Assembly (NCBI GenBank): GCA_963818965.1
Contig: CAWFUG010000002.1
Location: forward strand, 32,001-96,000
Direction: 5' to 3'
DNA from: an uncultured Verrucomicrobiae bacterium
GTDB taxonomy: Bacteria; Chlamydiota; Chlamydiia; Chlamydiales; Rhabdochlamydiaceae
Length of the DNA: 64,000 nt
Made by a program: the position numbers and the translations under genes. Every line of letters begins with the position of its first letter. Position 1 is the first letter of the stretch. The notes under the pieces were generated by a model. That model was not told the DNA's origin. It did no database searches and saw nothing but the letters and a program-made list of their open reading frames with translations. Shown here piece by piece: positions 49,248 through 54,086 of the stretch.

Positions 49248-51488
49248 TCACAGGAACATCGGGACGGGATTGAGATCAGATTCTGGGGTGGGCATGGCAA
49301 GCCAGCCCATTTTCACGGGGACATCATACAACCGACCGGGTGCAAAGCGGGTCCAAAAGTGACGCAAGCCGGGGACGATGACGCGAGCGACGGATAGCCC
49401 CACATCAGAGCGGGTCTGATCGAGGACCAAAAATTCCATGCCGAGGTCTTCGACGATCTTCTGGCAACGCTGGATGTCTTCGAGCAGATCGGTGCTCTCC
49501 CAGATCGGGTAGTCGCGTGCTGTTTTCAAAGGTCCATTCTTTTTTAGATAGGGTTGGTTCTCGAGGGTGGCAGTTCTCAACCAATCGCGCACGATTTCTT
49601 TATCGCGCTCTTCCTGTGGACTATCGATCCTCCTTTTCTCCCAAAAAGAATCGTTTGAGGTGATCTGATTCAGCTCTGACAAAGCTCTAACGAGCGCGCG
49701 TTTTGCATCAAAATGCGTTCCAAAGCCGAAGAGGATCATCTCCTCTTCTCCCTCGGTAACGCGAGAGAGTGCGACGAATGTGGGGATGCCGAGATCTGTC
49801 GTGAGATCAAGAGCCCAGAGCTCTCTATTTGCTTTTGCGTATTCTTTTTGAAGCATGGAGATATAGGGAAGAGAGAAACTCTCCAAATCCACAGCGGGTC
49901 TCAATAGGCGATTGTACCACCAGATGCCTACACCATCTCTTTCGACGAGCTCGAAAAAGCCTTGAAGGATGGCCTCTTCCAAGCAATTTCCCGCTGCACA
50001 TCCATTCGAATCTCCCGTATTGCTCCACTGAGGATCGCGCCTATCAAAATAACAAAGAGCTGTCGGGAGGTATTTCATTTTTTTCTCCGTCAAGGAATAG
50101 ACAGAGGTCCAAGAGAGTACTTTATCTTCTGGAAAGGGTTCTGAAACTTTGGCAAAGCGATGTGCGCAAGGGTTTGTCGTCTGCCTTTTTTCGTATTGTC
50201 CTTCACTGAAGAGAAGGATCCGATTGGGATGGATCGCGTCTTCTTTTAATTCTCGAAAAGAGGCCAAGAGCTGTGCATCTGTTTCTCGATAGATTCCTGA
50301 AAATCTCTCCAAAGCCTCGCAGAGTGCTCCGGCTTTAGCCATGGCAGCTGTTGTCCCTTTGCCACTGCAATGATTTCTAAAACCACTCGGCATTTGACTT
50401 TTCAAAGAATGGGGGAGTGCCCAATTCGTACCGCTAGTATACACATGAGCAGTGGGTCCAATCGAATGGTCAACGCGTTCTAGATATTTGACGATACCCG
50501 TAACGGGACTGATGAGATGGGCGTATTTTTCTACTGTCTCTTCGGGTGAGAGAATTCGATACCCATCCCCTGAAGGATCTCGTCTATCTCTACTTTTCAA
50601 GTAAACTGTGTCAGGTAGGGATTCTTCTACAGTGCAACGAGCACACGAGGAAAGGGATTGGATACAGTGGAATTCCATTTTAAGTCGAAGGGGATCGAAG
50701 AGAAGAATTTTTCTCTCTAGAGCTTCGCTTTTACCGAGGAAGATTCTCTTTAAAAGCTCGGTTGCTACCAGATGGTAGGCGATAGACCGCGTAGAAGTGA
50801 ATTTTGTAGGGGAAGGGCTGAGAGGGGCTTCTTCTCCAAAGCAGAGGGTTTCCTCTCGGCGATTGTGCTCTAATCTCTTTGCCAGACACGGGTAGCATCC
50901 TGCTTGGGTTCCTTCAAAAAAGGGACCGATCCACGCTTGGGCACCTCGCACACGCACGAGCATCCAGGGTTTGTCGCTTCTCATTTTGTCAAATGCCGCG
51001 ATGCTAGGTTCCAGATAGTCGTCTACGAGCAATACAGCTAAATCAGATGCGATAGAGTCATCGATTTGCTGGATTTGGTAAGAGTTGAGAAGAGCCAGAA
51101 ACTCAGGATCTACAGAACCACCCAGAGAAGTGATGGAAATCTTTGTGGAACGGAGGGTCGTTTCTGCAACAGCCTCAGAAATAGAGAGCAATCCGCATAG
51201 CGAGCGCAACTCTTCTGGCAAATGGGTAGACCCCTCAGAAATGAGATGTTGTGCCCTAAGTCGTTCTAAAGCGTAGTAGACCATTTCCGGTGGAGCTTCT
51301 GAGGAAAGGCAATCGACCAATTCATCTTCAGAACGCGTGCCTTCGCTGAGCAGTGGCGCGAGCAACACATACGTTTTTCCCATCAAAAACGTGCGATCCC
51401 ATTCCGATAGCAAGAGGACTCCGTCCTCTTCTATCCTCTTGATCTGGTAGGTGTGATTCCAGCTTAATAGATTCATAGCATTTTTCAT
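49248..51488 (-). CDS. Fused E1-like/YcaO cyclodehydratase (TOMM C-D fusion)
   Basis: WIGPF...GCYPCL; SGKG...CEALERFS; SNGCAAG; ELVERD; Pro-rich C-terminus (LNPVPMFL); start 51488 or 51476. Confidence 0.92.
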   Translation of the reverse strand: MKNAMNLLSWNHTYQIKRIEEDGVLLLSEWDRTFLMGKTYVLLAPLLSEGTRSEDELVDCLSSEAPPEMVYYALERLRAQHLISEGSTHLPEELRSLCGLLSISEAVAETTLRSTKISITSLGGSVDPEFLALLNSYQIQQIDDSIASDLAVLLVDDYLEPSIAAFDKMRSDKPWMLVRVRGAQAWIGPFFEGTQAGCYPCLAKRLEHNRREETLCFGEEAPLSPSPTKFTSTRSIAYHLVATELLKRIFLGKSEALERKILLFDPLRLKMEFHCIQSLSSCARCTVEESLPDTVYLKSRDRRDPSGDGYRILSPEETVEKYAHLISPVTGIVKYLERVDHSIGPTAHVYTSGTNWALPHSLKSQMPSGFRNHCSGKGTTAAMAKAGALCEALERFSGIYRETDAQLLASFRELKEDAIHPNRILLFSEGQYEKRQTTNPCAHRFAKVSEPFPEDKVLSWTSVYSLTEKKMKYLPTALCYFDRRDPQWSNTGDSNGCAAGNCLEEAILQGFFELVERDGVGIWWYNRLLRPAVDLESFSLPYISMLQKEYAKANRELWALDLTTDLGIPTFVALSRVTEGEEEMILFGFGTHFDAKRALVRALSELNQITSNDSFWEKRRIDSPQEERDKEIVRDWLRTATLENQPYLKKNGPLKTARDYPIWESTDLLEDIQRCQKIVEDLGMEFLVLDQTRSDVGLSVARVIVPGLRHFWTRFAPGRLYDVPVKMGWLAMPTPESDLNPVPMFL

Positions 51489-51781
51489 TGGTTGACATTG
51501 CATGCGCCGCTATCGTAACTGTAGTCACAGCTTCCCGCTGCAATTTTGAGTAATTTCTCCTCAGAGAGCTCGCCTTCTGGTTTGTGAGGCAAATTGAGGT
51601 GGATAACCTTATTTGTGCTCTCATGAATTTCCACATGTACCTCTTTTGGCAGCTCGATTCCCTCTGCCGCTAAAACAGCCGTAGGATTGTGCAACAACTT
51701 TTTCTTAAATGCGGGATCGCTCCACGCTTTGGCGATAACTTTTGCCCATTTCTTTTGAAATTCTCCGCGATGACTAACCAT
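51485..51781 (-). CDS. NHLP-leader RiPP precursor; core SCDYSYDSGACNVNQ
   Basis: KVIAKAWSDPAFKKKLL..P leader, ELSEEKLLKIAAG cleavage motif. Confidence 0.92.
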   Translation of the reverse strand: MVSHRGEFQKKWAKVIAKAWSDPAFKKKLLHNPTAVLAAEGIELPKEVHVEIHESTNKVIHLNLPHKPEGELSEEKLLKIAAGSCDYSYDSGACNVNQ

Positions 51782-51850
51782 ACTTTTCCCCTTATATTGT
51801 GCTTCCTTGGGCCACCTTATAAAATAAAATTTTTATCACCAAGAGTAAAT

Positions 51851-53482: not shown

Positions 53483-53767
53483 TTAATGGCCCCAGCATGC
53501 ACAGCCACCTGCAGTGGCGCCTGCCGCAATCTGTAACAAAGTCTTCTCAGAGACTTCGCCCTCAGGTCTCTGGGGCAAATTGAGGTGGACCACCTTGCTC
53601 GTGCTTTCATGAATTTCAACATGCACCTCTTTGGGCAGCGCGAGTCCCTCTGCCAGTAAGGTCTCATTAGGGTGGTGCATCAACTTCTTCTTAAATGCGG
53701 GGTCGCTCCACGCTTTGGCGATGACTTTTGCCCATTTCTTTTGAAACTCTGCCTGATGACTTGCCAT
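53483..53767 (-). CDS. NHLP-leader RiPP precursor; core ATAGGCACWGH
   Basis: Same 83-aa leader ending IAAG. Confidence 0.92.
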   Translation of the reverse strand: MASHQAEFQKKWAKVIAKAWSDPAFKKKLMHHPNETLLAEGLALPKEVHVEIHESTSKVVHLNLPQRPEGEVSEKTLLQIAAGATAGGCACWGH

Positions 53768-53813
53768 ATCCTTGTCCTTATACTCATTTGAAATTTTGGA
53801 TGAATAATCTGTT

Positions 53814-54086
53814 TTACATGAGTGTTACGAAACCAGCACCCGCTGCGATCTGCAACAAAGCTTCCTCAGAAATTTCTCCCTCAGGTCTCTGAGGCAAATT
53901 GAGGTGGACGATTTTGCCCGTGCTTTCGTGAATTTCAACATGCACCCCTTTTGGCAGCGCAAGGCCTTCTGCCGCTAAGGTCTCTTGGGGGTGGTGCATC
54001 AACTTCTTCTTAAATGCGGGATCGCTCCACGCTTTGGCGATGACTTTTGCCCATTTCTTTTGAAACTCTGCGCGATGGCTTACCAT
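53814..54086 (-). CDS. NHLP-leader RiPP precursor; core AGFVTLM
   Basis: Same 83-aa leader ending IAAG; RBS AGGAGG. Confidence 0.92.
   Translation of the reverse strand: MVSHRAEFQKKWAKVIAKAWSDPAFKKKLMHHPQETLAAEGLALPKGVHVEIHESTGKIVHLNLPQRPEGEISEEALLQIAAGAGFVTLM

Follow-up and report, generated by a model that had tools for sequence, protein, structure and literature searches.

The window analysed here, a 64,000-nucleotide stretch of contig CAWFUG010000002.1 (GenBank assembly GCA_963818965.1), very probably carries a complete gene cluster for thiazole- and oxazole-containing peptides that are made by ribosomes and modified post-translationally (RiPPs), of the type whose leader peptide is nitrile hydratase-like (NHLP type), that is, an azole-type proteusin or thiazole/oxazole-modified microcin (TOMM) system in which one cyclodehydratase would serve several substrates. 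We make this assignment because all seven component types exceed the curated NCBIfam cut-offs. The genome carrying the cluster (2.24 Mb, 12 contigs, 88% complete) is, judging from its proteins, that of a Rhabdochlamydiaceae-like environmental chlamydia. The components are listed below; the curated cut-off of the NHLP leader model TIGR03793 is 50.9 bits, and the cut-offs of the other models follow their scores in parentheses.

53814 to 54086, minus strand: NHLP precursor 1, 90 amino acids (aa); TIGR03793 74.2 bits; tail after IAAG, AGFVTLM
53483 to 53767, minus strand: NHLP precursor 2, 94 aa; TIGR03793 72.6 bits; tail ATAGGCACWGH
53185 to 53463, minus strand: NHLP precursor 3, 92 aa; TIGR03793 74.0 bits; tail AGYCPNSIQ
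51485 to 51781, minus strand: NHLP precursor 4, 98 aa; TIGR03793 82.7 bits; tail SCDYSYDSGACNVNQ
48917 to 49222, minus strand: NHLP precursor 5, interrupted; TIGR03793 79.6 bits when TGA is read as tryptophan; tail ATIGPPGGSGCSSPDYCN
Locus L008, 7450-7746 and 8192-8482 (= G000:C2:15449-15745 and 16191-16481): two adjacent orphan NHLP precursors, ~65 kb upstream of the cluster
51851 to 53188, minus strand: SagB-type flavin mononucleotide (FMN) dehydrogenase (azoline oxidase), 445 aa; TIGR03605 172.5 bits (78.4)
49248 to 51503, minus strand: fused E1-like/YcaO cyclodehydratase, 751 aa; TIGR03882 113.3 bits (36.9) for the E1-like, leader-binding part, TIGR03604 254.7 bits (219.25) for the YcaO/SagD part
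54180 to 55331, plus strand: HlyD-type periplasmic adaptor for NHLP bacteriocin export; TIGR03794 181.1 bits (156.2)
55328 to 57472, plus strand: C39 peptidase/permease/ATPase exporter (predicted leader cleavage and export); TIGR03796 950.4 bits (853.3), PF03412 E 2e-33
57469 to 60348, plus strand: second NHLP-export ATP-binding cassette (ABC) permease/ATPase, 959 aa; TIGR03797 743.3 bits (709.4), residues 276-957

Precursor genes and their common leader

All five window precursors lie above the TIGR03793 cut-off (72.6-82.7 bits, with the internal TGA of copy 5 read as tryptophan), and, as a preliminary description of this DNA had stated, in each of these minus-strand paralogues the stretch that ends with an invariant I80-A81-A82-G83 is exactly 83 residues long. 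A degenerate pattern back-translated from KKWAKVIA matches five times in the window, against 0.05 matches expected by chance. The leader DNA, described earlier as closely similar, is 71-89% identical among the window copies, and the similarity ends directly past the AAG codons. That description had placed all five precursors within 51485 to 54086; this interval holds only four, together with the 445-aa SagB gene, and the fifth lies downstream of the YcaO gene at 48917-49222. It had also advised a search for remote precursors, and a genome-wide NHLP search duly returned seven matches, all above the TIGR03793 cut-off: six intact genes, including the two orphans, and one interrupted by one TGA. 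The orphans carry the tails QTNPGSNTPTEGRIS (after IAMG) and CWTGGTESSGNG (after IAAAG) and sit between a Fic-like and a pseudouridine-synthase-like open reading frame (ORF); no modifying enzymes were found in their neighbourhood at locus L008.

Leader protein identity among the seven precursors of the genome is 65-89% (21 pairs). Among solved structures the leader comes closest to nitrile hydratase alpha chains and to 8TB1, an NHLP leader determined by nuclear magnetic resonance. The 83-residue leaders of the five window copies contain no Cys, and hence no nitrile-hydratase metal-binding cluster CxxCSC, and score 37-45 bits with the nitrile hydratase alpha model TIGR01323, far under its cut-off of 249.85. 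The spacing of leader ends of this type is judged against the double-glycine cleavage consensus, and the hydrophobic positions found here, I(-4), L(-7), and I/V/L/M(-12), are compatible with cleavage after G83.

The SagB and YcaO genes lie interspersed among the precursor genes. The TGA stop of precursor 3 and the GTG at which SagB begins overlap as GTGA, and the last codons of precursor 4 overlap the YcaO start, by 19 nt if translation begins at ATG 51503 or as ATGA if it begins at ATG 51488; these overlaps suggest co-translation.

Predicted modification, cleavage, and export

The SagB dehydrogenase has a ThcOx-like N-terminal domain, matches PF22767 and PF00881, and has the cyanobactin oxidase CyaGox (5LQ4, E 1.7e-74) as its nearest solved structure. 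The YcaO protein begins with a winged-helix domain resembling a RiPP recognition element (RRE), matches PF02624 and PF21084, and is nearest in structure to the azoline-forming enzymes MusD (7U58), LynD (4V1T), and TruD (4BS9), with E values of about 1e-159 to 1e-152. It is the single YcaO of the 88%-complete genome. The gene for the HlyD-type adaptor is divergent from precursor 1, 93 bp away. In the exporter, the C39 domain aligns with the double-glycine protease 6MPZ (E 9.6e-41), the Cys (ECGAA), His (NHF), and Asp (NDP) positions being matched there and also in PCAT1. The N-terminal extension (~275 aa) of the second ABC protein has a tblastn match in 3 of 82 related loci, a set consisting of G014, G015, and the 80 best of 584 YcaO relatives. 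A scan of 47 further window ORFs found nothing else related to RiPPs.

The Mpr system, reportedly first described in a 2022 paper, corresponds to locus L020 (Methylovulum psychrotolerans), with a YcaO 41% identical to the present one and a tandem set of ten NHLP genes whose cores are 7-10 residues long. There, every one of the precursors MprE1-E10 receives two to six azolines from the YcaO enzyme MprC, MprD oxidises the azolines, and the 81-aa MprE leaders require A14, W17, L70, and L75, N-terminal leader truncations abolishing processing (Wakeel et al. 2025; PMC12455567). In the present leaders these four residues align to A17, W20, position 72 (I/V/V/L/M in the five copies), and L77.

By analogy, the following pathway can be proposed. 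The folded leader of ~83 residues would dock on the one fused E1-like/YcaO enzyme at the winged-helix/RRE domain of that protein, through the first leader helix (A17, W20) and through a hydrophobic-X4-Leu motif at -12 and -7. The YcaO domain would then use ATP to cyclodehydrate the Cys residues of the core, and less readily Ser/Thr, to azolines; the SagB flavoprotein would oxidise these to azoles; the C39 domain of the ABC exporter would cleave after the double-glycine-type site IAAG; and the ABC/ABC2/HlyD machine would export a product of 7-18 residues. Precursors 1-4 are expected to be substrates of this one enzyme set, and the two orphan precursors probably are as well. The promiscuous YcaO postulated in the preliminary description fits the data, namely a single YcaO in a genome with six intact and one interrupted NHLP genes, and an experimentally characterised homologue in Mpr.

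Core peptides

The cores proved as unrelated as had been described, with the sequences given at that time: identity between precursors is 11-33% (21 pairs, seven precursors), the level expected from gapped alignment of very short strings. Those of the window are 7-18 residues long, three with a Cys pair and one with a single Thr. Cys is present in five of the seven cores of the genome and Ser/Thr in the remaining two; six have at least two Cys/Ser/Thr residues, the exception being precursor 1 with its one Thr. The low Cys/Ser/Thr content of AGFVTLM (1/7) and AGYCPNSIQ (2/9) is slightly unusual.

The preliminary description regarded the predicted products as unusually small, an impression that a survey of the 82 related loci does not bear out. 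A leader hidden Markov model built from 38 homologues was run against stop-to-stop ORFs of these loci with 6 kb flanks, yielding 64 domain matches, 49 of them with a complete leader end and from 20 loci. These 49 precursors have cores of 3-40 residues (median 12), with 10 residues or fewer in 16 and 18 or fewer in 39; Mpr cores, as noted, have 7-10. Cores of 7-18 residues are typical of related loci. Of the 20 loci, nine have at least two precursors, the highest numbers being 10 and 11. Loci with no leader match, 62 in all, are evidence in neither direction, as they may have other leaders or precursors past the flank.

Two side observations concern core and leader structure. The cores of precursors 1 and 3 (53814-53840 and 53185-53217, minus strand) both begin with AG[F/Y], and at the nucleotide level TAACA is common to them after a segment of 1 nt in one and 5 nt in the other; a frameshift in an AGYCPNSIQ-like core might therefore have given rise to AGFVTLM, although the common stretch is very short. 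Among the related loci, single ORFs at L018 3345-3881, L064 5247-5837, and L050 798-1178 contain two NHLP leader matches before one short Cys-rich core. Both matches take in nearly the whole leader model in L018 and L064, and the second match in L050 covers the leader's last 14 positions only; the arrangement suggests fused or duplicated leaders.

Strain comparison, selection, and the interrupted fifth precursor

A second contig, of 61,766 nt, encodes an elongation factor G (EF-G) that scores 1571 bits against a self-score of 1574 and is therefore evidently of the same species (the sister strain); the comparison with it was made on proteins. Precursor 2 (P0007) differs by five leader changes and precursor 3 (P0008) by three, neither having a core change. 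Precursor 4 occurs as an identical protein on two contigs, apparently including that of the sister strain. Precursor 1 (P0003) was found on one contig only, and a counterpart was not seen on the sister-strain contig. In total, 8 of 332 leader positions and 1 of 53 core positions are changed, and therefore cores do not turn over faster than leaders at strain depth. For the core turnover expected in the preliminary description the result is split: cores are conserved in the same-species strain, and in all more distant relatives they are unrelated, being entirely different behind leaders that are still up to 67-81% identical. For the leaders, the ratio of nonsynonymous to synonymous substitution rates (dN/dS) between window paralogues, a measure that the preliminary description had suggested, is 0.08-0.33 in the 8 of 10 pairs with unsaturated dS, and dS is at least 0.26; these values mark the copies as old and as evolving under purifying selection.

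The fifth precursor had been counted among five working ones by reading through its stop. At codon 20 (49165-49163, minus strand) it has an in-frame TGA where the other four copies have TGG (Trp), so that KAW-SDP becomes KA*SDP, and the longest ORF remaining is one of 43 aa from GTG at 49048. TGA terminates 16 of the 56 large window ORFs, and the TGA of precursor 5 is therefore a genuine stop; an alternative genetic code is ruled out by the same count, long ORFs being intact under table 11. The Trp at codon 20 aligns with W17 of Mpr, a residue needed for enzyme binding, so the stop replaces an enzyme-contacting Trp, and the residual 43-aa ORF would resemble the inactive N-terminal truncations of the Mpr leader. 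On the sister-strain contig precursor 5 is intact (P0002), with Trp at codon 20 and one core change (T to S). Among low-depth contigs from four sequencing runs, none clearly spans 49163-49165; one X2 contig starts at 49164 with three unaligned letters. Precursor 5 is expected to be a recent nonsense mutant of the present strain, and its full-length product is most likely not made.

Evidence against the assignment and rival explanations

Several findings weigh against the assignment of the locus as a working azole-RiPP cluster. The PxPxP motif at the C-terminus of YcaO proteins matters for the enzyme, and the present protein ends in PVPMFL, which is not a strict PxPxP. The helix-1 contacts of Mpr, Q7/S10/Q11, correspond to K10/A13/K14 here, so that details of docking may differ. 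Scans of 48400-54400 found 6 promoter-like sites against 5.7 in shuffled sequences and 11 terminator-like sites against 6.6 +/- 2.8, neither result improving on the shuffles. Two cores, those of precursor 1 (single Thr) and of orphan precursor 6 (QTNPGSNTPTEGRIS), are free of Cys and may escape heterocyclisation, because Cys is the preferred residue of MprC in the account of Wakeel et al. (2025; PMC12455567); the product of precursor 1 would carry at most one methyloxazol(in)e or may be exported unmodified. Finally, YcaO is present in 3 of 40 other related genomes, including 2 of 24 of the same family (43% and 39% identity), and was not found in a same-genus genome that is 89% complete. Such a patchy cluster with one broken precursor could have been recently acquired and may be decaying.

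Taken further, the last point becomes a rival explanation, which we hold to be unlikely: that the locus was acquired recently and is decaying, that at most two of its precursors still undergo processing, and that a reduced intracellular genome is in the course of losing these genes, AGFVTLM with its lack of Cys and the fifth copy with its TGA being steps on that path. The in-frame TGA, the missing sister-strain counterpart of precursor 1, the patchy occurrence of YcaO, and the possible frameshift origin of AGFVTLM (a hint drawn from a very short stretch) all accord with it. Decay would, however, be difficult to reconcile with enzyme and exporter ORFs that are all full length and above equivalog-level cut-offs, with leader dN/dS of 0.33 or less, and with cores kept between two strains. 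The stop in precursor 5 is itself missing from the sister strain and is therefore very recent, falling outside any long decay.

It is still less probable, and in our judgement very unlikely, that the products are essentially unmodified peptides, akin to class II bacteriocins or signalling peptides, for which the NHLP leader is a secretion and cleavage tag, with YcaO and SagB acting on Cys-rich members only. The NHLP export cassette is indeed spread more widely than TOMM enzymes (Haft, Basu, and Mitchell 2010; PMC2887384), and the Cys/Ser/Thr-poor cores of precursors 1 and 3 point the same way. Yet the SagB and YcaO genes stand among the precursor genes, which overlap their starts, each of the seven cores offers either Cys or Ser/Thr, and the homologous MprC modified all ten of its substrates (PMC12455567). 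We retain the assignment as an NHLP-type azole-RiPP cluster with one cyclodehydratase.

Host, distribution, and significance

In EF-G comparisons the best named relatives are Chlamydiota at 89%, Rhabdochlamydiaceae at 85%, and Candidatus Rhabdochlamydia at 83%. The host genome has three genes for TLC nucleotide transporters (ATP/ADP translocases), a type found in none of 14 control genomes. Parts of the stretch are present at low shares in nine sequencing runs of soil and peat metagenomes, none of which contains half of its words; no RNA run was among those listed.

A wide occurrence of biosynthetic clusters among Chlamydiae was reported by Dharamshi et al. (2022; PMC9666466). Among the 20 Rhabdochlamydiaceae rows examined in Data S10 of that paper, two have an antiSMASH 'LAP' (azole-peptide) cluster and two others have 'RiPP-like' clusters whose top MIBiG match, polytheonamide, is a product with an NHLP leader; these agree with the present cluster in host family and in type. 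The paper gives counts only for clusters, and YcaO, azole, and proteusin are absent from its main text. Victivallis is the sole 'chlamydia group' mention in the accessible text of Haft, Basu, and Mitchell (2010; PMC2887384). A literature search combining NHLP/YcaO with chlamydia returned no relevant paper treating all three.

One could imagine that an obligately intracellular, energy-parasitic chlamydia maintains this set of precursors, enzymes, and exporter for peptides that act in the host cell or inclusion, as a chemical protection of that host from co-infecting bacteria or as host-directed effectors, and not in the manner of bacteriocins from free-living bacteria. We offer this as a speculation with a small chance of being correct; if it were, precursor gain, loss, and nonsense mutation between strains would reflect ongoing selection on the repertoire, and a precursor 1 seen only here and a precursor 5 broken only here would be repertoire changes.

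For RiPP biology the locus is no conceptual addition: the family, its combinatorial logic, and a validated homologue are published, and the NCBI pipeline already names such genes. What modest interest it has comes from its presence in a chlamydia, from the fresh break in one precursor, and from the pair of orphan precursors. The compact and complete set—one YcaO, an oxidase, an exporter, and six intact precursors—would be tractable for studying the role of azole peptides in an intracellular symbiont, and the very short, partly Cys-poor cores would be useful probes of the tolerance of NHLP-dependent YcaO enzymes.

Other features of the window and related genomes

Directly after the exporter genes, at 60381-62753 on the plus strand, are ORFs of 131, 301, and 337 aa with no Pfam or NCBIfam match; the 301-aa and 337-aa proteins look like paralogues by eye (common G[FY]G..N and F LE.TL stretches). 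On the other side, a 764-aa ORF (46293-48587, plus strand) gives a weak match to an inverse-autotransporter beta-domain (PF11924, E 6.6e-8); its C-terminal part is long, repetitive, and rich in Asn/Ser/Gly/Thr. All four were considered as cluster genes and excluded, no tblastn match being found in the 82 related loci.

Farther away, 3263-26922 is a large block of sugar-nucleotide and methyltransferase genes that resembles an island for the modification of glycans or lipopolysaccharide. Its products include several epimerases/dehydratases and a bifunctional kinase/cytidylyltransferase, besides split transketolase-like subunits, a TylF-type O-methyltransferase, and two C-methyltransferases. Within 17066-18447 (plus strand) an IS110-family transposase is encoded as two overlapping ORFs (PF01548, then PF02371) and is possibly frameshifted. 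At the orphan locus L008, 14663-17265 (minus strand) holds near-duplicate genes for leucine-rich-repeat proteins with identical N-termini, the repeats being long enough to produce spurious ORFs on the opposite strand.

In genome G015, of the same family, the YcaO within L014 9065-15504 adjoins three NHLP-like precursors, their cores reading GES(R/M)G.SCGCI.., and an ORF of 957 aa that bears no annotation, an architecture that differs from that of the present cluster.

Comparison with known systems

Cyanobactin enzymes (LynD, TruD, and PatD; ThcOx and CyaGox for oxidation) and MusD have the fused RRE/E1-like/YcaO architecture in common with the present YcaO. Cyanobactins, however, have a short PatE-type leader, whereas the leader here is a folded NHLP that would be removed by a C39-ABC exporter, and there is no macrocyclase: neither PatA/PatG-type subtilisin-like proteases nor a macrocyclase was found among the scanned window ORFs (14 + 47 proteins).

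The preliminary description likened the locus to the prochlorosins (ProcM, ProcA), in which one promiscuous enzyme and a C39-ABC exporter serve many precursors that combine a single conserved long leader with hypervariable cores. The analogy stands at the level of this common logic; the machinery is another, as prochlorosins have a LanM enzyme, Nif11 leaders (TIGR03798), and thioether rings, in place of which there are YcaO/SagB, NHLP leaders, and predicted azoles here. The Nif11 model TIGR03798 matched none of the present precursors, and no lanthionine-synthetase domain was found among the scanned window proteins; a genome search for LanC-like proteins likewise gave no match, but its controls matched nowhere either.

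The nearest description in kind is that of Haft, Basu, and Mitchell (2010; PMC2887384), who defined NHLP precursors adjoining a fused cyclodehydratase and a three-gene export cassette, with a Gly-Gly-type site closing the region of homology and a hypervariable core behind it; NHLP/Nif11 has since been counted among the recognised TOMM groups (Cox et al. 2015; PMC4603692). The combinatorial peptide library that the preliminary description saw in the cores is an idea already published by Haft et al. in 2010 under the term 'natural combinatorial biosynthesis'. Clusters of the kind they defined occur, for example, in Pelotomaculum thermopropionicum (12 NHLPs) and Azospirillum sp. B510 (8). The present cluster has the same TIGR03793 leaders, TIGR03882/03604 cyclodehydratase, SagB, and TIGR03794/03796/03797 cassette; it likewise has several paralogous precursors, in which hypervariable cores follow a conserved leader that ends in a double-glycine-type site. 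It differs in its chlamydia-like host with a 2.2 Mb genome, in having AG (IAAG) instead of GG, in the low Cys/Ser/Thr content of some cores, and in the one copy with a stop codon.

With Mpr the present cluster has in common tandem precursors with very short cores (7-10 residues in Mpr, 7-18 here) behind leaders of nearly the same length (81 aa in Mpr, 83 here). Mpr cores are Cys-rich, with 2-8 Cys/Ser/Thr residues each as against 1-6 here, and the Mpr precursors form one array, whereas here they are interleaved with the enzyme genes. The gene logic, one enzyme for many substrates, would be the same in both.

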